Shown: positions 2,480 through 30,741, counted from the stretch's first letter. The stretch: 32,000 bases of DNA from Promethearchaeum syntrophicum (GCF_008000775.2 NZ_CP042905.2:2910001-2942000), one strand, 5' to 3'. The notes: generated from the letters alone by a model not told the origin. Translations and numbers: made by a program.

Positions 2480-2515
2480 GCTATTTTCAACTTATTTTTA
2501 TTTAATAATAGAAGT

Positions 2516-2537
2516 AAAAAAAAGAAGAATAAAAAAA
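2516..2537 (-). terminator. oligo-T tract pair downstream of operon A
   Basis: On the minus strand, a T7 run (2537-2531) and a T8 run (2523-2516) begin 24 nt after the TGA of the 1145-aa gene. Archaeal termination typically uses oligo-T tracts. Confidence 0.4.
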
Positions 2538-2560
2538 TATTCATTATATATTTTAGATTT

Positions 2561-5998: not shown

Positions 5999-8016
5999 TT
6001 TTCATCAGTTTTATTTTTTGGTAAATCTTCAACTTTTGGTTTTCTTAGATATCTAATTTTTTTTGGTTTTTGTCTCATTGATATGGGATTAAGATCACTT
6101 TCTTCGATATTATGAGGCTTTACAAATTGATCGGGTTTTAATTTCTCAATTTTTTGGGTTATTATTACTTTTTTGGGCAGTTCAGCTTTAGGTAATTCCA
6201 AATTTTCCTCTAAGCTCGATGGTTTTTTAGAAATTTCTGGTATTTTTACCTCTTTTGATATTTTAGGAGTGATTATTTCTTTTTCTTTTAAAAGTGCTTC
6301 TTCAACTTTTAACTCTTTTTTAACATCTCCCTTAGTTATTGACTTCTGAACACTTTCTCGAACCCCACGACCTTTCAAATTTGTTTCATTTATTGAAGTC
6401 ACGGATCCTTTTGCTTTGGCAATATAATCCTGAACAAATAAATCATCAGATATTTTCACAGATAACACTTTTTCAGCCGCTTTTCCTTTACGTATAGCTT
6501 TTCCTAAACTTCTAATTTCTCGAATAATTTTTGGGTATTTGAAGTATTGTTGATAGGCAACAAATGAGGTAATTAATCCAACAATAATAAAACCCATAAT
6601 ATAAAAGACGAAATCTGGAATCGATTCCAAAACCGTTGGAATAGGAATATTTCGCTCTACCACTGTAAAAGATGTTGTTAAATTGACATTATCAAACGTT
6701 ACTGTTACATTTTCATTTAAATGAAAATTATCGGCAACAAATAATTGTAACTTCAGTGTTATATTTTCAGTTTCATCTATAAGAGTGGGAGATATGTCAA
6801 AATTTTCACGCTGGAAGGTTGAAGAGAATTCAGTTAATTTAATTGTTTTAGAAAGCAGAACTTGATTAACATAAACTCTGATTTCGGAATTTATAGATGA
6901 AGTAGGCCATAATGGAGAAATTTTATAGTCAAAATAAAGAGAAGCATTATTTATAATAAAAAATCCAACATCACCCAATTCATATTCACCGTTATCAATT
7001 TTATTACCTGTTTGATCCCATGATGCCGATGTTAATTGATCAATTTTCTTTTCATATGTAAATGTAAAATTTACATTTTTTATCCGTAGGTTATTCCAAT
7101 AATCATAATCGGTACCAGCATTATCTTCACAGAATATATCCATACCTAAAATAACAGTAAAGTTCTCCCAATCATGAGAAAAAACTGAAGATAAATAAAA
7201 TTTAATGTTATCTTCTAAAACCATGTTCATATATTTTTCAATTTCAAGAGTGTTGGTTACTGCATCAACATAATATCCCAATTCAGATGATTGGTAATAT
7301 GCAATTTCATAGATATTCTCTAATAATGGATCTGCAATTGATACATAAAACCTAACATGATCGTACACAAATCCTTGAGTGGTTTGAGTTTCCCCAGAAT
7401 ACACATTCGGATCAACATCAATATTAGAATTAACACTTGCATTAATTAATGCACTAACATTAGCAGATGTAATTTGATAATCCGACATATTATTAGGCAT
7501 TGTAAAATTTTGAACCCAAAGAACACTAGGTAATTGTCTAGGCCCTTCTCGCCAACTATGATTTGCCCAACACCCAAATTCATCCATTCCATAAGAATCT
7601 TGCAGAGAATTATATGGCCATTCTGGATAGGCAGGAAAAGCAGGATTATGGATTGCAGTCCAATTTGTACTATCTGGGATTCCACTTACATTTGAAAATT
7701 CGTAATTTTCTCCTATAACTATATTATTAGCTTGATCATTTTCTAAATATTGGTTGATATCTGAGACATCTCCGTCTTCTTCCATGATCCATGGAGAATA
7801 AGAAGGTTCAAAACTAAAATTAGGATCCATAACCATAAGTTTAGAGAAATCTGTTCTATTTTCTATGTAAGAATCCGCAGGTGTTTCAATTTCTAAAGCT
7901 TTTGAATTTCCTATAAAATTTGGGAGAATGATTAAACTAATAAGAATTCCTGATACAAAAATATAAAGAAGTAAGTGGTTTTTTAATTTTTTATTTTTCA
8001 AAATGCTTCCCCCCAT
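5995..8016 (-). CDS. giant surface protein A1 (paralogue of A2): signal anchor, sequon-rich ectodomain, TM, 185-aa conserved cytoplasmic tail
   Basis: The track ORF starts at TTG 8046. I prefer ATG 8016 (MGGSILKNKKLKNHLLLYIFVSGILISLIIL), which lies 2 nt after the TAA of the upstream gene. The TM (FVFYIMGFIIVGLITSFVAY) and the tail (YPKIIREIRSLGKAIRKGK...QKPKKIRYLRKPK) are roughly two-thirds identical to A2 by eye. Confidence 0.8.
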   Translation of the reverse strand: MGGSILKNKKLKNHLLLYIFVSGILISLIILPNFIGNSKALEIETPADSYIENRTDFSKLMVMDPNFSFEPSYSPWIMEEDGDVSDINQYLENDQANNIVIGENYEFSNVSGIPDSTNWTAIHNPAFPAYPEWPYNSLQDSYGMDEFGCWANHSWREGPRQLPSVLWVQNFTMPNNMSDYQITSANVSALINASVNSNIDVDPNVYSGETQTTQGFVYDHVRFYVSIADPLLENIYEIAYYQSSELGYYVDAVTNTLEIEKYMNMVLEDNIKFYLSSVFSHDWENFTVILGMDIFCEDNAGTDYDYWNNLRIKNVNFTFTYEKKIDQLTSASWDQTGNKIDNGEYELGDVGFFIINNASLYFDYKISPLWPTSSINSEIRVYVNQVLLSKTIKLTEFSSTFQRENFDISPTLIDETENITLKLQLFVADNFHLNENVTVTFDNVNLTTSFTVVERNIPIPTVLESIPDFVFYIMGFIIVGLITSFVAYQQYFKYPKIIREIRSLGKAIRKGKAAEKVLSVKISDDLFVQDYIAKAKGSVTSINETNLKGRGVRESVQKSITKGDVKKELKVEEALLKEKEIITPKISKEVKIPEISKKPSSLEENLELPKAELPKKVIITQKIEKLKPDQFVKPHNIEESDLNPISMRQKPKKIRYLRKPKVEDLPKNKTDEK

Positions 8017-8018
8017 TC

Positions 8019-10250
8019 TTATTGCTCTAAAACATTCTCTCTCCAAATTTTTAATCTCTTTGATAATATTTTCCTCTTGAAATCATCCATAAAGGGTTTA
8101 CCATGCAAATCATTTATCCAATTTGTTATATCTGATTCAGTTCGAGCAATATTGAGCTTTTTACTAATTAAAGTTTTGATATCCTCCAAACCACTAACAA
8201 GCGTTTTAGGATCACTAACATCTATCGATTTAGATATTTCTTCAATTTTATCAATTATATCCTGTACATCTCCAGAATCATGTTTCGGTGATTCTTTTTT
8301 AACCTTTTTCTCCTCAACAACCTTAAGTGGTTCTTTACTTTGAGAAGGAGTAGGTATAATTGAGGTATCTTTTTTCAATGCGGGACTGAAAGGATCAATT
8401 ACTACAGGTTTGTGTTTTTCTATGGGTTTTTGCCTATCTGCCTGTTTTTGCAAAGAACTTATTGCTTGTGCCCCCAAACCCCCTTTACTTGGCTCACTAG
8501 GTTTTTTCTTGGGTTCCACTGGAATTAAGCGGGGTTGTTCTGATTTTTTAATTGGCTCTTGTTTAATTGGTTTCTTTATAATATCCTTATGGGCACCCAT
8601 CCAAGCGTCTTCTAGGATAGGGACGAAAATTTTAATATGTTCAGTTAAAATACTCCCGATTCCTGCAACTTCCATTTTAAATCCAGATATTCCTCTATTT
8701 ATCTTTATAATACTCAAAATTATCTCTTCATAATCTCTACTTACTCCCCAAAGATTTTGAAGCTTCCGATCTCTGTACGTAATATTATCCACTGAATCAA
8801 AGAATGCCATTTTTTGTTGATGAATAGGATCATCCGGATAAATAGAGCAGCATAATCTGATATTTATATGGTTTCGGACGTGCTTTAGAGGTTCAATATC
8901 AATATCGGAAAGCGTTGGTGCTACAATTAATATCCGCATTTTGGCTCTTGATATTGCATCATTAATTTGAGCCTGCATTCCTTCGGGAGTTTTTATAAAC
9001 CACACATCTTGCATGGTGAAATTAACTACCCGTTTCGATTCATCCCAAAATTCATCAATAGTCGCCGTGCTTAGATCTAATTGCTTTACAATTTTTCCTA
9101 AAATATCATCTAAGGTTATAACTACCTCATCTGAAAATGTGCTTCGTAAATCACCAAATGATTCATTTACTGTATTCGATATGTTCACAATTCTATCTTG
9201 CGTTTGAGTTAAAGTTGCATCAAATTGAGTAATGATAGAATCAAAAGATGTATGTAATTTATCTCCAATTGAATCCGCGTTAGAGGTAATTTCGGTAATA
9301 TCTTCAAGCAAGGTATCCATAATATTTCTAAACTTAGATTCAAATTCTGCTTGAAGTTCACTCCTTATGATTTCCATTTGATTATCAATATTCTTTTGAA
9401 CGACATCTTCTACTGTTTTTATTACAACACCAAGATGCAATTTTTCAAGATTAGTTGTGATTTTCTTAGAGACGATTTCAAATTGATTAAATAAATTTAC
9501 AAAATGTATATCTAGGAGAGAAATACTCTGATCACGCAAATCTTTAATACCCATAATCACTTTTTGTTGTTCCATTAGATTATGTAAACTATTATCAAGC
9601 ACTGTTCTTTGAGAGGATAATTGTTTGGAAACATCTGTTTTCATTTGATTTAAGTAGTCTATAAATTCGCTAAGAGTTTTAGCACCCTTACTACTTTCTT
9701 CAAAGGACATAAAAGAAGTTTGAAGGTCAGTCGGAGTAGACATCTTCATTGCAGCGATCATATTTCTAAATTTATCCAATTGGGCCATAAGGGCAGCGTA
9801 AGGAGGTAATGCTTGAAAATAAACAGTAGATCCCGGAATTTCTTTAAATAATCCTTTTTTTACGAATTTATCAGTAATTATTTTTATTTGTTCTATAGGG
9901 TGATTTGCGAGTATAGATAATTCTCCTAAAGACATCGGACCTTTTCCACTGGCCATAAAATAGAGTTGGATTTCTTCTTCACTTAATTCTATGCTCTTTA
10001 AAACTTCTTGGGTGAATTTCGTTGATTTTGGTTTAGTATCCGATTTCACTTCTTCTATTTCGAAAGAATCGACATTAAAACCTTTATTTATCGAAATGGT
10101 TAATTTATGGGCAGGCATGCCATGAATGTTTTCTAATTTTACTGGAAATTGAGCGTGTTCCATTGCTTTTCTATCTATTGGAAAAATTATATCTTTTAAG
10201 CAATGTTTACATCGAAAAGTAATTTCTTTCGGAATTTTGTGGATGTTCAT
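8019..10250 (-). CDS. TrmB-like winged-helix / long helical coiled-coil protein with PLD-like C-terminal module and Lys/Pro-rich linker
   Basis: The track ORF starts at TTG 10271. I prefer ATG 10250, which is preceded by AGGTGA (TAAGGTGAATTATATG) 10 nt after the upstream stop. The wHTH segment LSEEEIQLYFMASGKGPMSLGELSILANHPIEQIKIITDKFVKKGLFKEIPGSTVYFQALPP matches the TrmB HTH pattern. About 250 aa of heptad-like helical sequence follows. The segment WFIKTPEGMQAQINDAISRAKMRILIVAP resembles the PLD-like C-domain of TrmB-family proteins. Confidence 0.6.
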   Translation of the reverse strand: MNIHKIPKEITFRCKHCLKDIIFPIDRKAMEHAQFPVKLENIHGMPAHKLTISINKGFNVDSFEIEEVKSDTKPKSTKFTQEVLKSIELSEEEIQLYFMASGKGPMSLGELSILANHPIEQIKIITDKFVKKGLFKEIPGSTVYFQALPPYAALMAQLDKFRNMIAAMKMSTPTDLQTSFMSFEESSKGAKTLSEFIDYLNQMKTDVSKQLSSQRTVLDNSLHNLMEQQKVIMGIKDLRDQSISLLDIHFVNLFNQFEIVSKKITTNLEKLHLGVVIKTVEDVVQKNIDNQMEIIRSELQAEFESKFRNIMDTLLEDITEITSNADSIGDKLHTSFDSIITQFDATLTQTQDRIVNISNTVNESFGDLRSTFSDEVVITLDDILGKIVKQLDLSTATIDEFWDESKRVVNFTMQDVWFIKTPEGMQAQINDAISRAKMRILIVAPTLSDIDIEPLKHVRNHINIRLCCSIYPDDPIHQQKMAFFDSVDNITYRDRKLQNLWGVSRDYEEIILSIIKINRGISGFKMEVAGIGSILTEHIKIFVPILEDAWMGAHKDIIKKPIKQEPIKKSEQPRLIPVEPKKKPSEPSKGGLGAQAISSLQKQADRQKPIEKHKPVVIDPFSPALKKDTSIIPTPSQSKEPLKVVEEKKVKKESPKHDSGDVQDIIDKIEEISKSIDVSDPKTLVSGLEDIKTLISKKLNIARTESDITNWINDLHGKPFMDDFKRKILSKRLKIWRENVLEQ

Positions 10251-10260
10251 ATAATTCACC

Positions 10261-11535
10261 TTATACTCCAACTTTCTCCCAGTATGTATTTTCTAATAAT
10301 TCCAAAGCAATCTGCGCAATTTCCTTTGTTATTGGTGAAACTAATGAAGTTTCATCAATTGCACCCCATCTTAAGGAAGAGCGATCTTTAATTTTGGGTA
10401 ACAAAAATTCAGGAAATGTCGATAGAAAAGAGATTTCAGCCATCACACAAATCCAGTTTCTCCCTTCTCCATCTTTTATTAATTTCACAATACCTACTTC
10501 GAGTAGTTTCTTTAAAACATCATCAAGTTGAGCAAAATTTGATAAAACATTTGGGAGCTTCTTTACAGGATAGGCTTTTGTATTCAATAAAGCAAGTAAA
10601 TCAAAAATATCAGGATCTAAAATAATTTTTGCTAATTTTTCACTTTCTCCATAAAGATCAGTAAATGGATCATATGTAGCGTAATAATTATTTAATTCTT
10701 CAAAATATTGTTTATGGATTTCATGTTTTTTCATATCGGCCATTAATTCTTTTGGAGGGATCCGTATCAACGAAAGATCTTTTAGCAAAAACAAGTATTC
10801 CCCTTCACCGTGAACCCTCCCTGTGTCTTTGCTGTGAACCCCTCTTGCCCAATCCCTTCTGACTATATTCATCTCAAGAAAGGGTTTTAAAATAATATCC
10901 ATATTAGGATTCTTTTTGACTCGATCTATTAGCGATCTTAGTTTAATTCTGGAAAGTGGTCCTTCTTTTAATAGCTTCAACGTCATCATTCGTTCATAAC
11001 TTGAAAAGATCAAAGCAATTTTCTGAATTTTTGTTAAATTTGATAAGCGTTCGATTTGAAATAAGGCAAATTTTACTTGATTCAGCATTTCTCTTTCTAC
11101 TTCTCTTAAAACTTGTGCGGTTTTACTACTTTTAGCAAGTTTATTAAAAATTTTACCCAATTTCTCACACATCTGATAAAATACACCTTCATAGAGTTCA
11201 ACATCGTCGTCCAAAGCAAATAATGCTAAGATTAGGTACTGACTCTCATCAATTGAATGGTGATAATATGAGAGTACTCTGTATGGGGTTTCTTTAAGTC
11301 TTCCTAAAATGAAATTCTTTATCATCCGCTCGCGTTTTTTAAAATCCAATCCTGTGGTGTGATTATAGAATAATCTATACTTATCATTTTCAGTAATTAG
11401 ATCGTTTAAGTCGATCTTTTCCTTTTCGGTGCCGGTCCCAGGCATTTCAGAAACTAAATTTTTAAATTCGGGCTCAATATCCCCCGTTTCATCTTGATTT
11501 AGTTCAAATTGAAAAATTGTAATTGTAACAACCAT
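10261..11535 (-). CDS. longin-like alpha/beta N-domain + tandem winged-helix protein (paralogue of 24261..25340)
   Basis: 424-aa ORF with an ATG start; it is the first gene of operon A. Blocks EYLFLLKDLSLIRIPPKEL and NWICVMAEISFLSTFPEFLL align by eye with TYVFLLKYLICFRAPPLDL and QVYFLKSDIILDFVPMNYMI of the 359-aa protein. WH-like segments include TLKLLKEGPLSRIKLRSLIDRV. Confidence 0.55.
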   Translation of the reverse strand: MVVTITIFQFELNQDETGDIEPEFKNLVSEMPGTGTEKEKIDLNDLITENDKYRLFYNHTTGLDFKKRERMIKNFILGRLKETPYRVLSYYHHSIDESQYLILALFALDDDVELYEGVFYQMCEKLGKIFNKLAKSSKTAQVLREVEREMLNQVKFALFQIERLSNLTKIQKIALIFSSYERMMTLKLLKEGPLSRIKLRSLIDRVKKNPNMDIILKPFLEMNIVRRDWARGVHSKDTGRVHGEGEYLFLLKDLSLIRIPPKELMADMKKHEIHKQYFEELNNYYATYDPFTDLYGESEKLAKIILDPDIFDLLALLNTKAYPVKKLPNVLSNFAQLDDVLKKLLEVGIVKLIKDGEGRNWICVMAEISFLSTFPEFLLPKIKDRSSLRWGAIDETSLVSPITKEIAQIALELLENTYWEKVGV

Positions 11536-20470: not shown

Positions 20471-21034
20471 ATGATACGTCAAGTAAAACAATTCCAAGCT
20501 GAAGCGTTAATTAATTCCGAAACATATCGCAATTTTGTCCAAAAAACCCAATCTGAAATACTTAGGGGAATCTCTACTGTGGTTGTGCTCAAGATTATTA
20601 ATTCTCACGCTAAGGAAGGAATTTATGGTTATCTTTTATTACGCGAGTTGGAAGAATCAACAAAAAAAACACTCGTGATAGAAGAGGGAACACTCTATCC
20701 TTTACTAAAGAAGTTAGAAAAGGAAAAAGTAATTCGATCTGAACGAAAAGATGTTCAGGGGCGATCTCGTAAATATTATTTTATTACCCCTGAAGGTCAG
20801 AAAATTCAAAACCATTTAATGGGATTCTTTTCAAAATTGGTTGAATCGATGAGTGATTTAATGGATATCAATGTAGATTTACCGCAGAAAAATGTTCTTT
20901 TTTGCCCTAATTGTGCTAATCGAATCGATCTAAAGGATCCTGATTCTCATTTCTGTGAAGTATGTGGATTGAATATTCAGAATTTAAGGTTTGTTCCCAA
21001 AACAAATAATGAAAATGGAGATGAAATATTATGA
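20471..21034 (+). CDS. PadR-family transcriptional regulator with C-terminal zinc-ribbon
   Basis: It carries the classic PadR wHTH signature (GYLLLRELEE...EEGTLYPLLKKLEKEKVIRSERK...RKYYFITPEGQK) and a C-terminal CPNC...CEVC motif. Confidence 0.85.
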   Translation: MIRQVKQFQAEALINSETYRNFVQKTQSEILRGISTVVVLKIINSHAKEGIYGYLLLRELEESTKKTLVIEEGTLYPLLKKLEKEKVIRSERKDVQGRSRKYYFITPEGQKIQNHLMGFFSKLVESMSDLMDINVDLPQKNVLFCPNCANRIDLKDPDSHFCEVCGLNIQNLRFVPKTNNENGDEIL

Positions 21035-22194
21035 ATAGATATAATTATATTATTGACGATTTTCTAAAAAAAGTGAAGGAAAAACTACCTTCATGGATTC
21101 GGGAAGATAAAAAAGAATGTACCGATATTTTAGAAGAAATGGAAGAACATATTTTGGATCTTGCTCAAGAATTGGCAGGAGGTCCAGAAGAAGAGGCCGA
21201 TATAGAAAACATTCGCGAAGCTATTGCCCGGATGGGATCTCCTGAGGAAATTTCAAAGGAATATAAAAAAAGAGGAACTCCGAAGTATTATTTAACGGAA
21301 GAATGGATTCCTTGGTATAAAAATGTATTAGGTATAGTTATAGGCGTAATAATGGCAATAAATGTGATAACCCTAATATTTTCAATCGATGATGGGGAAA
21401 GTTTTTGGGAGATAGCATTAGGTTTCCTCAATGGATTATGGGGGTCAACTCTATTTTCATTCATCATAATCAGTGTTATTTTCATTGCGTTATCAATGGA
21501 AGGCTTTATGCCCCATGATTTTGCAGAAATGTACAATAAATATGGTAAATATGTGGAAAAAGAACCCAGTAAAACGAAGAGAGGAACACACGGTCATCAT
21601 TTTCAACGGGAAATGGAGAGAGTTGAACGTGATCTTCATAGGGTAGAAAAAACAGTTGAAAAAGCCACAAAAGAAGTGGAGAGAGCAAAAGCAACAGTAT
21701 CAGTGAAAATTCAAAAGAAAACTAAAAGAAAACCACCAATTAAGGTTGGAGACTGCTTGGCGAGCGGAATATTTGGAATATTATGGGGTTTGTTCCTGAT
21801 AATGCAACCAATTGAAAGTTTTAATGTGAACTTCACTCCAGAATTCTTAGAATTTGTGAGATTTATGGGTACCCTAGCTTTCAGTGAAGCAATAATTAAC
21901 CTTTTCCAAGCATTTGCGGGAATCTCTCGGTCATTTACTCAACAAATATTACTCTTCCTCTTAGGTATTGTGCAAGTATTGAATATTTTAGTCTTTGTCA
22001 GCGCTCTTAAAAGCCCAGAAATTCTTTCAATGTTCTCACTTGCATCAGGTTGGACTTGGGACCCAACTACAGTGTTTAAAATTTTGATGTATATATCTAT
22101 ATTCGGAACAGGAATTGACATCCTTAAAAAGTTGGGCGATATTGGGATGTATCAAGGCCGTTTAGAAAGATATTATGTTGAAACTTTTGATTAA
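21031..22194 (+). CDS. DUF1700/HAAS-like membrane protein partnered with PadR
   Basis: Its start overlaps the PadR stop (ATGA). The N-terminal helical domain ends in MGSPEEISKEY, typical of DUF1700 proteins. Multiple TM helices and a central charged coiled segment follow. Confidence 0.7.
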   Translation: MNRYNYIIDDFLKKVKEKLPSWIREDKKECTDILEEMEEHILDLAQELAGGPEEEADIENIREAIARMGSPEEISKEYKKRGTPKYYLTEEWIPWYKNVLGIVIGVIMAINVITLIFSIDDGESFWEIALGFLNGLWGSTLFSFIIISVIFIALSMEGFMPHDFAEMYNKYGKYVEKEPSKTKRGTHGHHFQREMERVERDLHRVEKTVEKATKEVERAKATVSVKIQKKTKRKPPIKVGDCLASGIFGILWGLFLIMQPIESFNVNFTPEFLEFVRFMGTLAFSEAIINLFQAFAGISRSFTQQILLFLLGIVQVLNILVFVSALKSPEILSMFSLASGWTWDPTTVFKILMYISIFGTGIDILKKLGDIGMYQGRLERYYVETFD

Positions 22195-22200
22195 AGTCAG

Positions 22201-22208
22201 TTTTTTTT
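22201..22208 (+). terminator. oligo-T (T8) tract after the PadR/DUF1700 pair
   Basis: A T8 run starts 7 nt after the TAA at 22192-22194. Confidence 0.45.
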
Positions 22209-22268
22209 ATACTATATTTAATTTTTTCTTTTTTTCTTCTTTTTTAAGATTTTGGGTGGAATATACCT

Positions 22269-23357
22269 TTATAATTTTGCGAAAAATTCAGTTTGGGTTT
22301 TTCCTGCTTCAATATGAAGCCCTTGTTGTACGAATTTTTTCATTCCAAGCCATGGAATGATATCGGCGTTATTTGAATCATGGAAAATAGTAGAATTTGC
22401 AAGCATTGGTATTTTATTAAAATCCCGTTTCAACCTTTGGAGGAAAGCAGGAAATTTTGAAGAGCCCCCAATTACAATAATTGAAGCAAATAACTCTCTT
22501 CGGAGAGAAGGAGGAGTTTCTTTCAAAGTTTCAATTAATAATTGATCTACTGCCATATTTTTGTTATTTCCGAGGAAAGGTTTGAATAAGAATTCAGGTA
22601 CAAGTATTTTTTCTATTCCAACAATGATTGATTCATTAAAATTGGGAATATTTATTGTTTCTTTTAATGCTTCTACAAGGATTTTTGATTGTAAAATTTC
22701 ATTAAAATTCTCAACAAAATGGGTTTTAGTAGTTTTAATCTCTTCCACTAATTGTTGAAACTGTTTGTTTTTAATCGGTGTAAATTTCGTTCGAAGTAGT
22801 GATAAGAGATATTCAGATAGATGTTTCCCAGCTAGTTCTGATGATTTAACTGAATTTCTGATGGGTTGTCGTTGTTGATATTGAATAGCTCTAGTTTGAT
22901 CATACCCGAGATCCAATACTGTGCAATTTTCTAAATCATAAAAATATACACTAAACTTACTACTTGGAGCATTCACAATTCTATATATATTAAATTGTTG
23001 AAACAGGAATGCTTTCACTGTGTTTATAGTTTCTTCAGACCATAATACTGGTGTACCTAAAATTAATGTTGAATTCTCGAGAATAGAAGAGAACCGACCA
23101 AAAATAAACAATAAAAAATTTTTAAATATTTCTTCTTTGTGAAATTGCTTGGAAGAAAAAATGTCTTTAATTTCCAAAATTCCTTGGTAGGAGAAAATTT
23201 TCTGATCAAATTTATGATTTTCAAAATCAGGTGAGGTTACTGATGTAAACCGTGGAATTCCCACTTTACTTGTAAATTTTAAGGGATACACATCGTTATA
23301 GGTATTAATTTTTGCGAATCCTGTTCCTAAATCGACTAATATTACATCATCACTCAT
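22269..23357 (-). CDS. divergent actin-family ATPase (actin-related protein, ARP-like)
   Basis: 362 aa. It is collinear with eukaryotic actin by eye. Phosphate-1 is ILVDLGTGFAK (actin: VCDNGSGMCKAG) and phosphate-2 is TVLDLGYDQT (actin: IVMDSGDGVT). LAGKHLSEYL matches LAGRDLTDYL, and IIVGIEKILVPEFLFKPFLG matches [21 protein letters not shown]. The adenosine motif is IIVIGGSSKFPAFLQRLKRDF. GGAGGT lies upstream of the ATG. Confidence 0.85.
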   Translation of the reverse strand: MSDDVILVDLGTGFAKINTYNDVYPLKFTSKVGIPRFTSVTSPDFENHKFDQKIFSYQGILEIKDIFSSKQFHKEEIFKNFLLFIFGRFSSILENSTLILGTPVLWSEETINTVKAFLFQQFNIYRIVNAPSSKFSVYFYDLENCTVLDLGYDQTRAIQYQQRQPIRNSVKSSELAGKHLSEYLLSLLRTKFTPIKNKQFQQLVEEIKTTKTHFVENFNEILQSKILVEALKETINIPNFNESIIVGIEKILVPEFLFKPFLGNNKNMAVDQLLIETLKETPPSLRRELFASIIVIGGSSKFPAFLQRLKRDFNKIPMLANSTIFHDSNNADIIPWLGMKKFVQQGLHIEAGKTQTEFFAKL

Positions 23358-24237
23358 TTATATTACCTCCTGTCCTAGTTCCGAGAATTGTAGATCGGAT
23401 GAACTTTTGTAAGTTTCTATACTGATCCTCTCCGTTTGCAAATTCAAAAATAGGAATTTTTAGAATTAAAGATAAATTTTCGGATAAAATCATATGATCA
23501 TGCTTGAAAGTTATTCCGTAAATCTTTAAATTTGGTTGATTTTGACGAATTTTGAATAATTTAGGGAGAGTGTAGGCAATAAAATCCATATTTGGTTCGA
23601 TTAAAATATAAGCAAAATTTTTGTTTTCCAATAATTGATACATCAATTTTTCATTCTCTATATCAATATTCCAAAATTTAACATCACAATTTGTAAGACC
23701 ATGATCCACGAATTTGAAGATATTTAAATTTTCTAAATTTGATAACTCAGAATCTGACACAGATTGGGAAGATCTTGGAGAATTTTTTGATAGAAAATGC
23801 CAGAAATCTTGCTTTATTTGTGATTGAGGACTAATAATTCCAATATCTAAAGATGTGTTACAGATTTTTAAAACAATTTCATCATAAGGATTGAACTCTT
23901 CCATAGAAAAAATTTCGCGAACTTTGATATGACCAAACTTCTCCAAAAATAGGTTCTTCAGTTCGAAAATTATATCATTGATCAGTTCTAGATTGTCATA
24001 TTTATTCACAAATAGAATTATCGAAACCTCATTATTTAAAAAAGAAGCTATATGCATTTCCAATTCAGACATCTGTAACATTTCAATTTTCTGCTTATAA
24101 TGAGTTAATTGTGCAGAAAATGCATCAATTGCAGTTGTAAATCCCCCTATTAATTGATAATCTACTCTTGTATCAGTAAAACTATGATTATAAATGCAAA
24201 TTCCTACATTCGTGATAACCATTACTTGATGAATCAT
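23350..24237 (-). CDS. longin-like domain fused to a degenerate Ras-like (pseudo-GTPase) domain
   Basis: 295 aa. The N-terminal ~105 aa has a TRAPP/sedlin-like longin pattern (VMVITNVGICIYNHSF...QLIGGFTTAIDAFSAQL...MHIASFLNNEVSIILFVNK). The C-terminal ~170 aa follows small-GTPase strand/helix order, with VKFWNID for WDTAG and ITFKHD for NKxD, but it has no GxxxxGK[ST] P-loop. AAGGAG lies upstream of the ATG. Confidence 0.45.
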   Translation of the reverse strand: MIHQVMVITNVGICIYNHSFTDTRVDYQLIGGFTTAIDAFSAQLTHYKQKIEMLQMSELEMHIASFLNNEVSIILFVNKYDNLELINDIIFELKNLFLEKFGHIKVREIFSMEEFNPYDEIVLKICNTSLDIGIISPQSQIKQDFWHFLSKNSPRSSQSVSDSELSNLENLNIFKFVDHGLTNCDVKFWNIDIENEKLMYQLLENKNFAYILIEPNMDFIAYTLPKLFKIRQNQPNLKIYGITFKHDHMILSENLSLILKIPIFEFANGEDQYRNLQKFIRSTILGTRTGGNINE

Positions 24238-24260
24238 TTTAAAATTCTTTCTCCTTTATA

Positions 24261-25340
24261 TCAGTGAGATTCTAGATAGTTTTCTTTTAATATCGAAATA
24301 TAGCTTAAAAGAAGTTTATCGGGTTTTCTATCCTCAACATGCATATTATAGATCTGATTGATCATGTAGTTCATAGGAACAAAATCCAGAATAATATCGG
24401 ATTTTAAGAAATATACTTGTTCTTCATTTTGATCAACTACAATATCAACAATATCACTATTAATCAAATTATTGACTAAATTCATAACTTGATCGACACC
24501 GTGTAACTTTAGTTTCGTTAAAGAGCTGTGTTTGGCATAAGATTTCCTAAGAAAGTCAATAATGACCCAATAATTAGTTTGTCGTATATAACCGGCAATT
24601 TCAATATTGTCTTGCTCATTTGGCACATATTTCTTAAAGAAATCTCGAATTTTTTTTAAAATCTTTTGATTTAGTTCATTATCTTTCGCTATTTTTATCT
24701 TTTGGGATAAATCTAAAGGAGGTGCCCGAAAACATATAAGATATTTCAACAGAAAGACATAAGTGCCATCAACTCCACGCACGATAGAGGTTTTTAATAT
24801 ATCATTTTGGACTAACCCATCTATAATATATTCAAAGTTATATAATTTGGTCTTAAGGATATCCTCCAACCAAATTTTCAATTCATCCCGATAAAAACAA
24901 CCTTCTTCACTTAATGTTTTGAATATAGCCCGATTAAGATTACTCCCATACATCATTGCTCTACGTTGTTCGAGATTCGTGCTTGGAAATTCGGTACATC
25001 GCTGATAAATTGAAGGTAATAACGTATTAAAGGTATCTTCTTCAATAAAAGGTATTAAATAATATAGAAGATCGGAGATAACTTCCTTGTAATCCTCAGG
25101 TTGTTCTTCAATGGTTAGTAAAAGCGATAAGAAATAGTTATGTGTCGATCCTGTCCATACGGAGATAATATTTAATGCGCCCACATACATGGAAACAATA
25201 TCAGATTGCGCCCCGTAAAGGTGTTGAGAATATAGTTGCATCATAGTCTTATCCGATACATCTAATTCTTTTGGATATTTTCCTAACTCTTCCGCTCCCG
25301 AACGGTAATCCCATCTCCAAAGAATCATACCTATAGGCAT
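24261..25340 (-). CDS. longin-like N-domain + tandem winged-helix protein (paralogue of 10261..11535)
   Basis: 359 aa. Its ATG overlaps the stop of the upstream giant gene by 1 nt (TAATG) and is preceded by GGAGGAG. The N-terminus has a beta-beta-alpha-beta-beta-beta-alpha pattern (IGMILWRWD..GAEELGKYP..MMQLYSQHLYG..IVSMYVGALNIISVWTG..YFLSLLLTIEE..). Two WH-like units align with the 424-aa protein. Confidence 0.5.
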   Translation of the reverse strand: MPIGMILWRWDYRSGAEELGKYPKELDVSDKTMMQLYSQHLYGAQSDIVSMYVGALNIISVWTGSTHNYFLSLLLTIEEQPEDYKEVISDLLYYLIPFIEEDTFNTLLPSIYQRCTEFPSTNLEQRRAMMYGSNLNRAIFKTLSEEGCFYRDELKIWLEDILKTKLYNFEYIIDGLVQNDILKTSIVRGVDGTYVFLLKYLICFRAPPLDLSQKIKIAKDNELNQKILKKIRDFFKKYVPNEQDNIEIAGYIRQTNYWVIIDFLRKSYAKHSSLTKLKLHGVDQVMNLVNNLINSDIVDIVVDQNEEQVYFLKSDIILDFVPMNYMINQIYNMHVEDRKPDKLLLSYISILKENYLESH

Positions 25341-28300
25341 TACAAATCTCCTCCTGTTTTATAGTCTTGCGAAAGTTGATTTATATATTCTAAAACGAGA
25401 TCTACAATTCGAGGAAGATATTGTTCAGAAATACCCATATTTTTCAATTTGATATTGATTTCATCCCGCGAATAGATACTAAGGTCTTCAAACATAAGTT
25501 TAGCTTCCTCTACCAAGAGTGCTTTATTCGTAGCTTGCTGATAGAGATCAATAAACTGCTTAATATCTTCACGAACCGGTTTGAATGGTGATTCCAAATC
25601 TATTGAAATCCAACGCGATCCATATTCCTCACTAATGATTTCATCAATTCTGAGATTGTCTAATTTATACTTCCGCCCTCGTGTGATAACCAATTTTAGG
25701 TGATTTAAATCTTTTACAAATTTTGGAATTCGGGCATTTTTAATTACTATATAACTGCTTAATCCCGTTATAGTGATAAGGAAAGCAACTCCAATAATGA
25801 TCCAAAAAGGAATCGGAATATCAAGAAACTCTTGATAATTTACCTGAACATAAATCTTTTCTGTGGTATGAATATATTCTTCTTTCACAATATTAATTTC
25901 AATTACATAGAGCCCTATTTCATCAAATGATGATAACATAAGTTGAAAATTCCCATCTTCGAGTTCGATAGTTTCACTTTCAATTTCCACATTATCTTTT
26001 ATTATCCGATAAGTGAAAGTCCCCCCAGAAATTTGTTCATGTTTATGATTTCTAGTAGTGATATTTAAAATTAAATCATTTTTCTGTTCAATATCGATAT
26101 CAGAACTATTGTAATATTCTTGATTTTCATTCATAAATATAATATCTGTACTAATTGGTATCAAATGAATATCAAGCGTAAAGGTTGTAAGACTTGTAGA
26201 ATGATTTACTTTCTCAAAAACAATCGAAATAGAATAAGACCCGATAGGAAGAATTTCGGTACCTGGTTTAAATTGATAATTTCCCATTCCAAGATTGTTG
26301 AGTAGTCCGAAATCAGAATAATTCGCATCCACTGATTGAATAGTATAAGTTGTATTCGCATTCTCAATGTTTTCTTCGAAATTATTTACTAAGTTTAAAT
26401 TGAGACTAAATTCATCAAACCGATATATGTCAATTGTATTTCGAAAAATGGTGCTATCATTCAACGAAGTAGGAATAGCATAAATTTCAAATTTTGCAAT
26501 AGCTGTACTCGTAGTATAATAAATTTTCTCAAAAGTTATGATCGAAGTATAATTTCCGATAGGTAATTCGGAAGTTATAGGATCATATCTATAAATACCA
26601 TCGGATTGATGTTCTAATACTCCTGTAACTATAAGATCTGATTCTTCATGACTTAAGTAAAAGGAAGGAGCAATATTAGAGATCGGAACATGTTGATAGT
26701 TATCCCAGAATTCATATTCTACTGTAACATCTTTTTGAGTAACAATTAACTCGTGTTCAGAATAAAAGAGATCTGATCCATTTACTCTAGTTGGTACAGA
26801 ATATATCTCAATATTGAAGTTCCTTGTTCGTTCGTTATAATGATCTTTTTGAGCCAAAACAGATACTGAGTGATATCCTGGTGAAGCAATAGTTGAATTG
26901 ATTTCGATTGCATATAATCCATCAGATAAATAAGTCATTGGAAGATATGATGTAAAATCACCCCATTCAATCCATAATTCCCCATAATGTATTGGAGAAT
27001 CATTATTAAGGTCTCGATATGTTGCATAAACGGTGAAATTTTCATTATAAATCAATGAATCAACATTTTTTGAAATATTTAGAGTTGTTGAGATATTATA
27101 AATGTTAAATATTTCATTGATTGCTTCGGGATCTCCATATCCATATAAAACCGCTTCGATAGATATTGAATATACTATAGGGTTTCCTGAATCAAAGTAC
27201 CCAGAGGTTGTATTGATTACAAATGAATGGTTACCCAGTTCTCCGGGAATTTTATCTGCTTCGCCTTGAAAAATAATATTTCTCTCAATGTCCTCAACCG
27301 TTATGAGAGTTTCATTTGCCCATGTTGGACCTGAAGATCCACCAGGACCATAAGTGATATTATACATAAAGGATAAATCAATATTATCTCCCCAATCATA
27401 AGTTAACGGGAGTGAATTAAATAGAGTCAATTCTGTCTCAAAATTCTCTACTTGTTCACCTGCTAGTGAAATAGTGAGATTTTCATAAAGATAAGAAGAA
27501 TAGGGAGCAGCGGTAAAATTAAAAGCAGAAAAAAGATCATTAATTACAGTCTCTTCCGAAAAAAAGATTATTCGAATCGAATAATTAATAGAACTCAACC
27601 AATTGATAGTTACATTCCCGTTTTCATCGGATAATTCAAATCCAATGTAATCTCCATTGTCCGATGGAGAAGTCCAATTATATAATTCAACGATAGCACC
27701 ATCAACAGGATCCTCAGAAGGATTTTTAATATTTAGATGAATTTTAAACATATCTACTGTTTCTATATGATATGTTGTTGCTAACAGAACAAAATCATCT
27801 AAATAGGCTAAATTTGTGGTATTTCCATAATTATTGTATGTGATATTAATATCGTAATTCTGTTGAATATAATAAATTGAAATATTGCCATAAGAATCAG
27901 TTAAAGAATTATAAATTTGATCTTGTCCTGTAGCATCAAAAATCGAGATATTGGAGTTGGGGAGAACATTTCCAGTTATATCTTTAACTTGAATGTTGAA
28001 TTCTGTTAAATTTGTAGAAATAACAATAAAATCTCCATCACTTGGATAGGAGATTGAATAATTTCGAATAAATCGATTTTCAAGCCATGGTGCTCGTAAT
28101 ATCGCTGTATAATCTCCATCGGGTAAATTCCCGAATGAACAATTACCATTTGAATCGGTTAGTTTTGAAGCGTATTTTTGGTGATTTGTGGAATTTACAA
28201 GGGTAATGTTCACATCCGGAACATCTTTCAGTTCAGAATCAATAATATTAACTTTCAATACCGATATATAGATAACGTCGAGCAAAACTACATCATTTCG

Positions 28301-29479
28301 ATTGTAATCTGTAATATCATCATCAATGGTTATCTCAATTTTATTTTCAGATGCAAGATCTAAACCCAAATCTGTGAAGGAAACAAGAGTGAATGTACCT
28401 TGACCTAATACAGGAGTACTTTGACTATCATGCCAAATATCATTTACATACAGATCTACTATTCGACTATCTGAAGAAGTTCCTGAATTTAAGACCGAAG
28501 TAGACACATTTTGACTCCCTGATAAATCTACATCTAAATTATAGATAGCAAAATCATTAATGAATTGATTTTTTATATCGGATGTTTTAGTCCTTAAATC
28601 GGTTGCATTATCCCCGAATCCATAAATAATCGGCACAGTAAAATAATCTTCTGGATAAAGATCGGATTCATAATACTTTGTTACCATACCACAATTCTGA
28701 TTGAGAGCTGAATCAACATTTCCAAGAGAGCCACTAATATGAGTTTCAAGATCAGTCGGATCACCCACTTCATATTCTACAGGGGTGACAGGTGAATTCC
28801 ACCCGATTGCTCGTTTAGAAATTGCATCTTCTTGCCAAATGAGATTATCCACAGGATCAAAGTAGGCATTATCGTTATCAATAGTTTCATCAATATCCAA
28901 ATCACTTAATGACCAAAATTCAATATTGTATGCCCAATCATCAACATGAAAGGTAAAACTCATGACGAAAAAATTTTCATCCGGATAAACAGCATATACA
29001 ATTCTAATATTTACAGTTACGCTAGGAAATGAGAGTTCCACGACCGTAGATCCGATCTGAGCACCATTTGGGTTTTCTGCGTCTGATAATAGACGTAAAG
29101 GTTCTTCTGCAACTACTATTGCATCGCTCAAAGGTTTGGGATTTTTATCATAAGCTGCCACCCAAAACATAGAATAAAAATTATGATGGAACCCCTCGAA
29201 GTATAAATTACTTTCAGCATTTGATAAAAAGCCCTTTTCATCAATTTTCAATTCATAGTTTCCGTTATTTAGAGTTAGGGCTGTGGCTGAAGTCTGAGGA
29301 AATGTGGAATCATTATCTAAAAAACCGTCCCCAAGATTTTCGGTATTAGATTGAGATAAGTTAATCAAATTTTTGTTTGTATATAATATATTTGCGCATA
29401 AAATGAGCGATATTAGCATAATACCCAAGAATTTGGCCTTAAAATCCTCACGTTTAGTATTTTGTTTATAATCGAGCAT
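25340..29479 (-). CDS. giant surface protein B: signal anchor, sequon-rich ectodomain with CarboxypepD_reg-like and ~105-aa beta-sandwich repeats, TM, 133-aa cytoplasmic helical tail
   Basis: The track ORF starts at GTG 29488. I prefer ATG 29479 (MLDYKQNTKRED..). It has three TDxxGN-type prealbumin-like units (~27590-28260) and repeated modules ending ..LPIGxYxIxIxFEK.. (~25850-27130). The TM is FWIIIGVAFLITITGLSSYIVI. The juxtamembrane IPKFVKDLNHLKLVITRGR is collinear with the YPKIIREIRSLxKAIxKGK of the operon-A proteins. Confidence 0.85.
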   Translation of the reverse strand: MLDYKQNTKREDFKAKFLGIMLISLILCANILYTNKNLINLSQSNTENLGDGFLDNDSTFPQTSATALTLNNGNYELKIDEKGFLSNAESNLYFEGFHHNFYSMFWVAAYDKNPKPLSDAIVVAEEPLRLLSDAENPNGAQIGSTVVELSFPSVTVNIRIVYAVYPDENFFVMSFTFHVDDWAYNIEFWSLSDLDIDETIDNDNAYFDPVDNLIWQEDAISKRAIGWNSPVTPVEYEVGDPTDLETHISGSLGNVDSALNQNCGMVTKYYESDLYPEDYFTVPIIYGFGDNATDLRTKTSDIKNQFINDFAIYNLDVDLSGSQNVSTSVLNSGTSSDSRIVDLYVNDIWHDSQSTPVLGQGTFTLVSFTDLGLDLASENKIEITIDDDITDYNRNDVVLLDVIYISVLKVNIIDSELKDVPDVNITLVNSTNHQKYASKLTDSNGNCSFGNLPDGDYTAILRAPWLENRFIRNYSISYPSDGDFIVISTNLTEFNIQVKDITGNVLPNSNISIFDATGQDQIYNSLTDSYGNISIYYIQQNYDINITYNNYGNTTNLAYLDDFVLLATTYHIETVDMFKIHLNIKNPSEDPVDGAIVELYNWTSPSDNGDYIGFELSDENGNVTINWLSSINYSIRIIFFSEETVINDLFSAFNFTAAPYSSYLYENLTISLAGEQVENFETELTLFNSLPLTYDWGDNIDLSFMYNITYGPGGSSGPTWANETLITVEDIERNIIFQGEADKIPGELGNHSFVINTTSGYFDSGNPIVYSISIEAVLYGYGDPEAINEIFNIYNISTTLNISKNVDSLIYNENFTVYATYRDLNNDSPIHYGELWIEWGDFTSYLPMTYLSDGLYAIEINSTIASPGYHSVSVLAQKDHYNERTRNFNIEIYSVPTRVNGSDLFYSEHELIVTQKDVTVEYEFWDNYQHVPISNIAPSFYLSHEESDLIVTGVLEHQSDGIYRYDPITSELPIGNYTSIITFEKIYYTTSTAIAKFEIYAIPTSLNDSTIFRNTIDIYRFDEFSLNLNLVNNFEENIENANTTYTIQSVDANYSDFGLLNNLGMGNYQFKPGTEILPIGSYSISIVFEKVNHSTSLTTFTLDIHLIPISTDIIFMNENQEYYNSSDIDIEQKNDLILNITTRNHKHEQISGGTFTYRIIKDNVEIESETIELEDGNFQLMLSSFDEIGLYVIEINIVKEEYIHTTEKIYVQVNYQEFLDIPIPFWIIIGVAFLITITGLSSYIVIKNARIPKFVKDLNHLKLVITRGRKYKLDNLRIDEIISEEYGSRWISIDLESPFKPVREDIKQFIDLYQQATNKALLVEEAKLMFEDLSIYSRDEINIKLKNMGISEQYLPRIVDLVLEYINQLSQDYKTGGDL

Positions 29480-29737
29480 GAAAAGCACCTTCTAATTGTA
29501 ATGAGCTACTTTCACCTATATATATTTATCTTATATTATATAATTTGATGGATGGTGGAGGATTATCCAGTGATGAGGTATAATAGATAGATTATCTTTT
29601 TGTAATGTTTCTAAACTATTTTTTTCGTGTTTCCAAACAAGGTTACATCAAAAACGATTAATAAAAACAATTATATAAATAAGTTTACACTTTCACGCAT
29701 CTATATATATAATCATATTTCTTCCTTCATCATAAAA

Positions 29738-30238
29738 TCAAGTATCTCCATCTTTATATGATGCTCCAGTGAGAGCCTTACGCATAATTCTGTAACCAAA
29801 AAACGTTTTAGGGAAAAAACCTTCTTGAGAATATTCAATAGAAACGTAATCTAGTAAAAAAATCAGATCAGCAATCGCACATATAATTAAAAATCCCGTA
29901 ATCAAACGTTTTAAATTAATGCTTTCTGGGGGAATACCCATAAAATAGGGAACAAATATTGCTAGCACCATTCCAGCGATAACGAAAATATAGCTTAAAT
30001 AACGATACCACGCCTTTTTATATATGAATAGAAAGACGGTTAAAATAAATATCCCTATGATCAAACTTAACGAAAAAAATTGCCAGAAAGTAGTTAAGGG
30101 ATAAAAAATGAAGAACGTGATTATAATACCTAAGTTAATTATTTCAAATATTACAATTGAAAGGTGTCTTTTTTTCCAATTCGGGTTCGAGAAATCAAAA
30201 TAATTTTGAATATCAGATTGGTTCGGTTTGGTTGTCAT
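29738..30238 (-). CDS. small 4-TM membrane protein (tandem paralogue 1)
   Basis: 166 aa with an ATG start. It shares YFDFSNPNWKKRH, FIYK+AWY+YL.YIFV and DL.FLL.YVSIEYSQ blocks with the adjacent gene. Confidence 0.6.
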   Translation of the reverse strand: MTTKPNQSDIQNYFDFSNPNWKKRHLSIVIFEIINLGIIITFFIFYPLTTFWQFFSLSLIIGIFILTVFLFIYKKAWYRYLSYIFVIAGMVLAIFVPYFMGIPPESINLKRLITGFLIICAIADLIFLLDYVSIEYSQEGFFPKTFFGYRIMRKALTGASYKDGDT

Positions 30239-30261: not shown

Positions 30262-30741
30262 TTACAGATTTCTTTTTACGCTAATAAAAGTTCCATACTC
30301 TTTTAAATTTCTAGGTTTAGCCTTACGCTGAGAATATTCTATAGAAACGTAATTTAATAAAAAAACGAGATCAAAAATTGCACTTATAATTAACAATCCC
30401 AGAAGTAAACGTTCAAAAATAATTCCTTCTGGGGGAAAATCCATTAAAAATGTAACTAATATTGCACACACCATTCCAAAGATAACAAAAATATAGTTTA
30501 AATAATGATACCAAGCCCGTTTATATATAAAAAGAATGATGGTTATAATAAATATCCCAAAAAATGCACTCACGGTTGTAATTTTCCAGATATTGGTTAA
30601 AGGATTTAGTACAAGAAAAGCGATTATTATTGCTAAGTTAAATACGTCAACTATTAAAAATAAGATATGTCGTTTTTTCCAATTGGGATTTGAGAAATCA
30701 AAATAATGCTCAATATGAGATTGGTAAGGTTTGATTGCCAT
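30262..30741 (-). CDS. small 4-TM membrane protein (tandem paralogue 2)
   Basis: 159 aa with an ATG start. It is roughly half identical by eye to 29738..30238 and has the same predicted topology. Confidence 0.6.
   Translation of the reverse strand: MAIKPYQSHIEHYFDFSNPNWKKRHILFLIVDVFNLAIIIAFLVLNPLTNIWKITTVSAFFGIFIITIILFIYKRAWYHYLNYIFVIFGMVCAILVTFLMDFPPEGIIFERLLLGLLIISAIFDLVFLLNYVSIEYSQRKAKPRNLKEYGTFISVKRNL

Follow-up and report, generated by a model that had tools for sequence, protein, structure and literature searches.

Four adjoining genes on the minus strand of the chromosome of Ca. Prometheoarchaeum syntrophicum MK-D1 form one conserved, translationally coupled operon. They lie within a stretch of 32,000 nucleotides (nt; NZ_CP042905.2:2910001-2942000, hereafter the window) and encode, in order, a giant surface protein, a 359 amino acid (aa) adaptor, a 295 aa fusion of a longin domain to a predicted pseudoGTPase, and a 362 aa actin-related protein (ARP). 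The genes for the last three carry the locus tags DSAG12_03167, DSAG12_03166 and DSAG12_03165, and their products were deposited as 'hypothetical protein'. It is proposed that the four genes encode a membrane-spanning assembly that links a surface adhesin to the actin-family cytoskeleton, a linkage whose probability may be put at roughly 0.4.

Organisation and conservation of the operon

The open reading frame (ORF) call recovered exactly the coordinates of the four minus-strand genes given in an original prediction, which a model had made from the sequence alone (Table 1), and the three junctions it described, a 1 nt overlap, a 23 nt gap and an 8 nt overlap, all match on reading the DNA. The giant gene and the 359 aa gene share one nucleotide of a stop/start TAATG at 25340 with GGAGGAG ahead (...GGAGGAGATTTGTAATG), a 23 nt spacer with AAGGAG lies ahead of the start of the 295 aa gene at 24237, and the ARP gene overlaps the 295 aa gene by the 8 nt ATGAGTGA at 23350-23357, with GGAGGT ahead (GGAGGTAATATAAATGAGTGA). 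The intra-cluster gaps are accordingly -1, 23 and -8 nt. The sole gap within or beside the cluster that is big enough for a promoter is the 249 nt intergenic region 5' of the giant gene, which is the putative promoter site of the cluster.

The order giant, 359-like, 295-like and actin-family gene recurs in 11 independent loci, namely the window and ten others (L001/2, L003, L004, L005/6, L007-L011 and L028/29). The flanking genes of these loci are unrelated and their guanine plus cytosine (GC) content ranges from 27 to 54%. Within the cassettes the genes are closely spaced (-1 to +3 nt, mostly -4 nt, and 4-32 nt), L011 being the sole looser case, and for the giant/359 stop/start junction in particular the 11 cassettes measured span -1 to +3 nt. 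Giant orthologues of 1343-1979 aa head every cassette.

The most divergent cassette, L028, lies on a Logan contig (SRR28370465, 54% GC). It begins with two tandem giants with Pentaxin/Laminin_G_3 ectodomains, the first of which has a doubled copy of the tail module described below, followed by genes for 362, 291 and 355 aa, and a convergent pair of a second giant and a 381 aa adaptor ends at the same point. At L005 a 1276 aa TIR-NACHT/STAND-WD40 protein is encoded directly upstream of the cassette (1124-4954, minus strand) and is not kept at the other loci. A reading of the cassette as a defence system was rejected, since none of the four proteins has a PADLOC match and the flanks vary.

The giant surface protein and its tail

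In the window the ATG at 29479, with GAAGGTG just ahead, is a more likely start of the giant gene than the GTG of the ORF call and gives a protein of 1379 aa. The ectodomain is acidic (isoelectric point, pI, 4.05) and has Pfam CarboxypepD_reg, Ig-like and SpaA matches at aa 411-471; the first 42 residues of the tail, next to the membrane, are basic (pI 9.8). Of N-X-S/T sequons the ectodomain has 35, and the three cytosolic proteins have 0, 3 and 4. The hydrophobicity scan, the charge and the sequons together support the single-pass topology with a cytosolic tail that had been assigned to it, and the giant is best described as a putative type-I-like adhesin or glycoprotein held on the cell surface by one transmembrane (TM) helix. 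It has no sequence relative in the PDB, NCBIfam or PADLOC.

Giants were compared across 18 orthologues and paralogues in the hydrophobicity scan, to which the L028 giants were added for the comparison of tails. The C-terminal TM helix was detected in 17 of the 18, and in the remaining giant (L017b) it falls below the threshold, with the hydrophobic stretch and the tail motifs still readable. A juxtamembrane motif, ARIPxx[IV]K, and a second motif, W..[LI]DL[DE], are family-wide in the tails. Giants that head cassettes with an ARP (the ARP class) carry an additional helical tail module of ~60 aa (FIDLYQQATNKALLVEEAKLMFEDLSIYSRDEI..., with the pattern F..Y...T.K.LL.EA....L.I[YF]S) that is missing from the non-ARP paralogues and doubled in one L028 giant. 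Five of the six ARP-class giants in the 18-giant scan have tails of 134-185 aa versus 63-88 aa in the non-ARP paralogues, and on this comparison of sequences tail length and the extra module track whether a pseudoGTPase and an ARP are present. The divergence of the tail correlates with that of the partner 359-like protein with a Spearman coefficient of 0.71 (0.66 among the non-ARP paralogues), versus 0.44 (0.24 among the non-ARP paralogues) for the membrane-proximal ectodomain. Co-divergence of the giant tail with its adaptor is suggestive only, because the pairs are non-independent.

Gly-Gly is found 1-3 residues before the C-terminus in 17 of the 18 giants (window 25343-25354; L001-L028). 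Its interpretation as a ubiquitin-like processing signal was rejected, as it is the in-frame reading of the GGAGG Shine-Dalgarno element of the adaptor gene, and a GGAG(G)-type element stands 7-12 nt ahead of the 359-like start codon in all 27 related modules as well as in the window.

The giant and the 359-like protein constitute a multi-copy module family in Lokiarchaeia, with translational coupling of the two genes in 28 of 28 cases. A genome scan with two peptide patterns found paralogues of the 359 aa protein (~30% identity) in Ca. Lokiarchaeum ossiferum (four, three of them in tandem) and in Harpocratesius repetitus (two), and metagenome-assembled genomes with the ARP cassette contain one or two further paralogues each. 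At the paralogue loci with gene maps an ORF of 1300-2670 aa always ends a few nt from the paralogue start, the junction at L018 being looser (~85 nt), and in none of these mapped loci does a full-length pseudoGTPase or ARP gene follow.

The tandem modules of L. ossiferum (CP104013) lie at ~1.85-1.88 Mb (L016/L017) and the fourth at ~0.72 Mb (L022). Their giants are 2017-2665 aa long and may be the 'complex surface proteins' seen in that organism by cryo-electron tomography (cryo-ET).

The 359 aa adaptor

The AlphaFold2 model of the adaptor has an overall predicted local distance difference test score (pLDDT) of 76.6. The two winged-helix units expected from the original prediction are both present in it, at a pLDDT of about 90. 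The protein has no Pfam, NCBIfam, PADLOC or PDB sequence relative, also when searched with a 23-member family profile, and those of its 24 homologues that bear names all belong to Promethearchaeota. Foldseek gave sub-significant PDB matches only, among which Vps22, winged helix-turn-helix (wHTH) proteins of the ArsR/SmtB type, LAMTOR/Roadblock, MON1-CCZ1 and Fuzzy-Inturned are a recurring theme. The best, weak whole-chain match is ESCRT-II Vps22, which is not significant (E 0.011, template modelling score 0.17-0.26), and neither the protein nor its family members match Pfam EAP30 or Vps25. Winged helix 1 by itself weakly matches ESCRT-II Vps22 and ArsR/SmtB, and the N-terminal domain weakly matches LAMTOR, Roadblock/LC7, MON1-CCZ1 and Fuzzy-Inturned (E 0.06-0.2). 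The N-terminal domain had been called longin-like; the order of strands and helices in a model of low pLDDT and the weak Foldseek matches agree with this, and the domain is here tentatively termed longin/roadblock-like.

Typical DNA-binding wHTH domains are basic. Both winged helices of the adaptor are acidic across the family (median pI 5.4 for the first and 5.2 for the second), which favours protein binding over DNA binding, and the reading of the 359 aa protein as a DNA-binding regulator was down-weighted on this ground.

The window also encodes a 424 aa product (10261-11535, minus strand) with a tandem winged-helix region like that of the adaptor and another N-terminus, which matches the hidden Markov model (HMM) of the 359 family at positions 115-332 (E 7e-15). 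Its gene belongs to a second operon-like run (2561-11535, minus strand) and is followed by genes for a 750 aa protein with a weak TrmB-like wHTH match, a 683 aa protein with TM segments at aa 24-42 and 479-497 and, last, a 1145 aa protein with a signal, a TM helix at aa 937-955 and a 190 aa cytosolic tail. That a tandem winged-helix protein shares an operon with single-pass surface proteins that have a tail may be a pattern of wider occurrence.

The longin-pseudoGTPase

The C-terminal domain of the 295 aa protein is modelled at a pLDDT of about 80-87 and shows the canonical order β1α1β2β3α2β4α3β5α4β6α5. A Foldseek search of the PDB with the 295 aa protein yielded 308 matches at E<=1e-3, and the 50 listed are all small GTPases (probability 1.0, target template modelling score 0.51-0.69), including Rab6, MglA, KRas and Asgard ArfR1. 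The protein itself has no direct sequence match in Pfam, NCBIfam, PADLOC or the PDB, be it as a single sequence, through family members or through family profiles, and a comparison by hhalign of the C-domain profile with an HRAS sequence gave a probability of 0.02%; the link to GTPases was made from the full-database profile search and Foldseek only. In the former, the family profile reaches beyond the close clade to proteins of about 280-310 aa, matched over their full length with E values of 1e-14 to 1e-18, in which the same N-domain is fused to an intact GTPase with the motifs GxxGVGKT, WDxxGQ and NKQD. Pfam assigns Fuz_longin_1 (PF19036, above the cut-off in P0065) and Arf/Roc/Ras to these relatives, with 56-78 bits for Arf. 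The Ras-like fold without a P-loop that had been noted in the window is upheld by the Foldseek matches and by the HMM homology to intact longin + Arf-like fusions.

Alignment with the intact relatives indicates that in the cassette clade the G1 motif GxxGVGKT has become IS.QS.IK, in which the P-loop Lys alone is kept, that G3 (WDxxGQ) has become WN[ILF][DN][ILY]E, and that G4 (NKQD) and G5 are lost. This degeneracy extends throughout the clade, including the distant P0058. The retention of only the P-loop Lys, with the other motif residues replaced, argues that the 295 aa protein is a pseudoGTPase, and it is best placed as a predicted pseudoGTPase branch of the longin + Arf/Rag-like fusion family. 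On contigs of sufficient length, every gene of the pseudoGTPase clade is flanked by a 359-like gene on one side and an actin-family gene on the other. Two intact-GTPase relatives lie on contigs that allow their context to be judged, and both stand alone in housekeeping surroundings (a third contig is too short for context); the dead-GTPase clade therefore appears to have been specifically recruited into the operon.

The N-terminal domain (pLDDT 28-70) has the order β-β-α-β-β-α, which fits a longin domain, and is by transitive homology a putative relative of the FUZ/MON1/HPS1 type (PF19036). Its relatives P0065, P0066, P0086 and others score E values of 1e-8 to 1e-14 with the family profile, and the N-domains of P0065 and P0086 in turn reach 34.9 and 31.7 bits with PF19036 (cut-off 26.1), a family for which none of the 25 cassette-clade members has a direct match. 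The TRAPP/sedlin-like character once ascribed to this domain has to be abandoned, as no member gave a Sedlin/Sybindin Pfam match at E<=5; the weak Pfam matches among relatives of the 295 aa protein are Clat_adaptor_s and Fuz_longin_1.

Stand-alone longin proteins of 136-140 aa are encoded beside two non-ARP modules (L013 9207-9629, minus strand; L023 9330-9740, plus strand). The 136 aa protein exceeds the PF19036 cut-off with 28.8 bits, and the 140 aa longin-only relative, beside the giant + 359-like module of L013, aligns with the N-domain of the 295 aa protein at an hhalign probability of 96%. The same longin-type N-domain is fused to a prenyltransferase α-α toroid domain in P0081 and to apparently polytopic hydrophobic membrane domains in P0067, P0070 and P0075. 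Judged by these fusions it looks like a widely reused adaptor domain.

The actin-related protein

The ARP matches Pfam Actin (PF00022) with 84.2 bits (cut-off 27) and MreB_Mbl with only 11.8 bits, and its best PDB relatives are actins, Arp1 and Arp2 (E 1e-15 to 1e-17). These scores mark it, in line with its first assignment, as a true actin-family protein. The 11 cassette ARPs all share D11, G13, K18, G156, G182 and G301, and ten of them also have G302. D154 is kept in eight and is Asn in three, D157 is replaced by H or Y and G158 by Y, D, H or S, Q137 is never Q, and H161 has become R, or S in one locus. The claim that the ATPase motifs are intact holds for the phosphate-1 and adenosine motifs and fails for phosphate-2, and the catalytic residues are replaced. 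The nucleotide pocket has probably been kept and the hydrolysis apparatus lost. A P-E-x-L-F-x-P motif in the plug region and the equivalents of W340-G342 are invariant, and a C-terminal FFAKL motif is found in eight of the ten loci whose contig includes the C-terminus.

A possible link between surface and cytoskeleton

Longin and roadblock domains serve as dimeric GTPase platforms, and Asgard archaea possess a Lokiactin cytoskeleton under a protein-dense surface (PMC10933270, PMC9834061). It is proposed that each giant has its tail bound by its own 359 aa adaptor at a ratio of roughly 1:1, and that in the ARP class the extra tail module, the adaptor or both would recruit the longin-pseudoGTPase. 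The latter may serve as a GTPase-like platform that is permanently 'on', possibly by dimerising with the N-domain of the adaptor in the longin/roadblock manner, and would hold the ARP at the membrane, where the ARP might anchor, cap or nucleate actin-family filaments (Lokiactin or its own polymer). In this way a surface adhesin would be mechanically or positionally coupled to the cytoskeleton, for example in cell protrusions.

Several points weigh against such a linkage. In most of the giant + 359-like modules there is neither an ARP nor a pseudoGTPase, and the core role of the adaptor is therefore not actin-specific. An ARP without Q137, D157, G158 and H161 may neither hydrolyse ATP nor polymerise, and it evolves fast, with an orthologue identity of 28-32% versus 41-56% for the adaptor. 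The N-terminal α/β domains of the 359 aa and 295 aa proteins are both modelled at low confidence, and hhalign finds no homology between them (probability 0.2%), which leaves a common origin of the 'longin-like' domains without support. The co-divergence of tail and adaptor could result from a shared duplication history alone.

Foremost among the alternatives is a role in biogenesis or sorting, which is rather unlikely on present evidence. The 359-like protein would here be a cytoplasmic escort for the tail of a giant cargo and direct its insertion, retention, clustering or sorting into protrusions or vesicles, and in one subclass the pseudoGTPase and the ARP would be accessory factors of localisation or remodelling, not a structural link to filaments. 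Such an escort would suit the pair of giant and 359-like protein as a universal unit that is present in several copies per genome and mostly without an ARP, and the strict translational coupling implies matched production of the two. Stand-alone longin proteins next to two paralogous modules, one above the PF19036 cut-off, point the same way, and longin, GTPase and ESCRT parts are elements of the eukaryotic trafficking machinery (PMC10933270, PMC10936438). Vps22 of ESCRT-II is also the best, if weak, whole-chain match of the adaptor; however, this similarity is not significant and has no counterpart in an EAP30 or Vps25 match, and no recognisable ESCRT-III or ATPase gene adjoins any inspected module. 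An escort function moreover assigns no role to the conserved actin-family gene and the matching extension of the ARP-class tails.

It is improbable that the operon serves transmembrane signalling, with the giant as a sensor whose tail sequesters a double-winged-helix regulator, the 359 aa protein, and frees it on a surface stimulus in the manner of anti-sigma and sigma factors or of regulators tethered to the membrane. The wHTH is the commonest prokaryotic DNA-binding fold, the Foldseek matches of the adaptor include ArsR/SmtB, MarR and CodY regulators, and pairs of regulator and anti-regulator are typically co-transcribed and coupled, as are the giant and the 359 aa protein. The acidity of both winged helices across the family (median pI 5.2-5.4) argues against it, however, and the pseudoGTPase, the ARP and the ARP-class tail extension would be left unexplained. 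Near-identical modules in tandem, three in a row in L. ossiferum, also fit structural paralogues better than dedicated regulators.

A further alternative concerns the ARP, which might be a non-polymerising, ATP-bound regulatory or chaperone-like subunit that stabilises the longin-pseudoGTPase complex, comparable to nuclear ARPs of the Arp4/Arp8 type or the Hsp70-like ATPases. Many eukaryotic ARPs never polymerise, and the replacement of Q137, D157, G158 and H161 together with the low orthologue identity would be in keeping with such a subunit. The similarity is nevertheless specifically to actin, Arp1 and Arp2, not to Hsp70 or sugar kinases, and the plug-region motif and the W340-G342 equivalents are invariant, which makes this a long shot; it also overlaps with the proposed surface-cytoskeleton link, in which the ARP may cap or nucleate and not polymerise. 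A fortuitous adjacency of unrelated genes is hardly credible, contradicted as it is by 11 independent loci with the same order, tight junctions, differing flanks and a GC content of 27-54%.

The proposed surface-cytoskeleton link has a bolder form, which is rather unlikely as it stands. The cassette would be a Lokiarchaeia counterpart of the focal adhesion, in which giant adhesins act through winged-helix/longin adaptors and an 'on' pseudoGTPase upon an ARP that nucleates or anchors Lokiactin at defined sites of the membrane, and so shapes protrusions and cell-cell contacts. If true, it would be the first case outside eukaryotes of a machine that couples a membrane receptor to actin, and FUZ/MON1-type longin-GTPase platforms would have had a pre-eukaryotic use in the control of actin.

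To our knowledge no function is known for any Asgard ARP. In the cultured MK-D1 the cassette provides a genetic tie between a specific surface protein and a single ARP, longin-pseudoGTPase and novel adaptor, and its composition gives rise to testable binary interactions and localisations. It thereby bears on how the Asgard actin cytoskeleton joins the membrane or cell surface and on the roles of longin and GTPase-like 'eukaryotic signature' proteins. A linkage of this kind would, if true, bear directly on protrusion-based models of eukaryogenesis. Complex surface proteins have been seen on Lokiarchaeia by cryo-ET, and the giant + adaptor family offers a handle on them (PMC9834061).

Features of the locus and its neighbourhood

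Table 1. Positions of the predicted features of the operon, counted from the first nucleotide of the window
Feature	Position	Strand	Basis
AT-rich intergenic region, 249 nt, 5' of the giant gene	29489..29737	-	Sequence read
Giant surface protein gene, 1382 aa from GTG	25340..29488	-	ORF call
N-terminal hydrophobic segment, aa 18-36, putative signal peptide or signal anchor	29381..29437	-	Kyte-Doolittle scan
Predicted Ig-like / carboxypeptidase-regulatory-like β-sandwich domain, ectodomain	28076..28258	-	Pfam PF13620 (E 1.1e-12), PF24025, PF17802
Predicted single C-terminal TM helix, aa 1230-1248	25745..25801	-	Kyte-Doolittle scan
Predicted cytoplasmic tail, 134 aa	25343..25744	-	Tail comparison across giants
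Shine-Dalgarno GGAGGAG of the 359 aa gene, within the last codons of the giant gene	25348..25354	-	Sequence read
359 aa adaptor (DSAG12_03167, QEE17334.1), α/β N-domain + two winged helices	24261..25340	-	AlphaFold2 model
N-domain, aa 1-110, β-α-β-β-β-α	25011..25340	-	AlphaFold2, pLDDT 36-66
Winged helix 1, aa 120-206	24723..24983	-	AlphaFold2, pLDDT 80-91
Winged helix 2, aa 241-320	24381..24620	-	AlphaFold2, pLDDT about 90
295 aa longin + predicted pseudoGTPase protein (DSAG12_03166, QEE17333.1)	23350..24237	-	Profile and structure searches
Putative longin domain of the FUZ/MON1/HPS1 LD1 type (transitive homology), aa 1-105	23923..24237	-	Profile searches
Predicted small-GTPase domain of Arf-like fold, G motifs degenerate, aa 128-285	23383..23856	-	AlphaFold2, Foldseek, alignment
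362 aa actin-related protein (DSAG12_03165, QEE17332.1)	22269..23357	-	Pfam and PDB searches

Immediately upstream, the cluster is preceded by two tandem paralogous genes (29738-30238 and 30262-30741, minus strand) for small hydrophobic proteins of 166 and 159 aa. Both proteins have an N-terminal ...HYFDFSNPNWKKRH, neither has a Pfam match, and they are probably outside the four-gene system because they have no counterparts at the other cassette loci. At the downstream (ARP) end the cluster is adjoined by a convergent pair on the plus strand (20471-22194), whose genes overlap by 4 nt and encode a 187 aa PadR-family regulator with a fused zinc ribbon and a 387 aa HAAS-domain protein. The convergent gap between the HAAS gene and the ARP gene contains two copies of a 26 nt T-rich tandem repeat (22202-22253), which may be the oligo-T terminator region for the PadR/HAAS pair.

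Relation to known systems

The original prediction held that the gene set matches no known system, and indeed no description of the cassette, its locus tags and accessions or the giant + adaptor module family was found in the searchable literature, subscription-only literature being outside the search. Fusions of longin domains to Arf/Rag-like GTPases are known from MK-D1 (Tran et al. 2024, PMC10933270) and from Asgard archaea (Liu et al. 2021, bioRxiv 10.1101/2020.10.19.343400). The 295 aa protein is a full-length homologue of these (E 1e-14 to 1e-18), with a putative PF19036-type longin followed by an Arf-like G domain. Unlike them, the cassette clade has lost G3, G4, G5 and all of G1 but the Lys, and is locked in an operon with an ARP whereas the two intact relatives that could be judged stand alone. 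In MK-D1 a GTPase gene does not generally share an operon with a roadblock or longin gene (Tran et al. 2024, PMC10933270). Most genes for Asgard eukaryotic signature proteins lie outside conserved neighbourhoods; ESCRT and LAMTOR/Rab/DENN operons are listed and the present cassette is not (Liu et al. 2021, bioRxiv 10.1101/2020.10.19.343400). Asgard ARP groups have been treated phylogenetically and by expression (Rodrigues-Oliveira et al. 2022, PMC9834061). The cassette ARP resembles the published ones as a divergent Lokiarchaeion actin-family protein distinct from Lokiactin, and no report of a conserved set of operon partners for Asgard ARPs was found in the searchable literature.

Among the eukaryotic longin-GTPase platforms, Mon1-Ccz1, Fuzzy-Inturned/CPLANE-Rsg1, Ragulator-Rag and GATOR1 NPRL2/3 share with the cassette the longin type, putatively PF19036 in the cassette, and the pairing of a longin or roadblock domain with a small-G fold. 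The 359 aa protein has weak structural echoes, below significance, in MON1-CCZ1, Fuzzy-Inturned, LAMTOR and C9orf72-SMCR8. In contrast to the tri-longin and longin-GTPase platforms, there is one longin domain per cassette protein and no active GTPase substrate in the operon, and the 295 aa and 359 aa families have no Pfam NPR2, NPR3 or DENN match.

The integrin-talin/kindlin and cadherin-catenin linkages, and Arp2/3 at adhesion sites, would be paralleled by the cassette in the combination of a single-pass receptor, a short conserved tail, cytosolic adaptors and an actin-family effector. The analogy is a functional one only, and no homology between the components was detected.

The Agl-Glt system of Myxococcus (MglA/MglB-MreB) unites a Ras-like protein, a partner of the roadblock/longin superfamily, an actin-superfamily protein and an envelope adhesin complex. 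It shares with the cassette the logic of G fold, longin superfamily, actin superfamily and surface adhesin, which makes it the closest functional analogue, and the 295 aa C-domain has MglA (3t12_A, 6izw_A) as one of its best structural matches. The parts are not homologous beyond the fold. The cassette G domain is apparently dead and fused to its longin, its G motifs are degenerate, and no Robl_LC7 Pfam match was found in the 295 aa and 359 aa families, which sets it apart from an MglA/MglB-type module. The actin homologue is of the eukaryote type (Pfam Actin, not MreB), and the surface part is a single-pass giant with its own winged-helix adaptor. The parts of the cassette fall into familiar classes (Ig-like surface proteins, longin-GTPase fusions and Asgard ARPs), and it is in its composition that the cassette, as a system, matches nothing described in the searchable literature.

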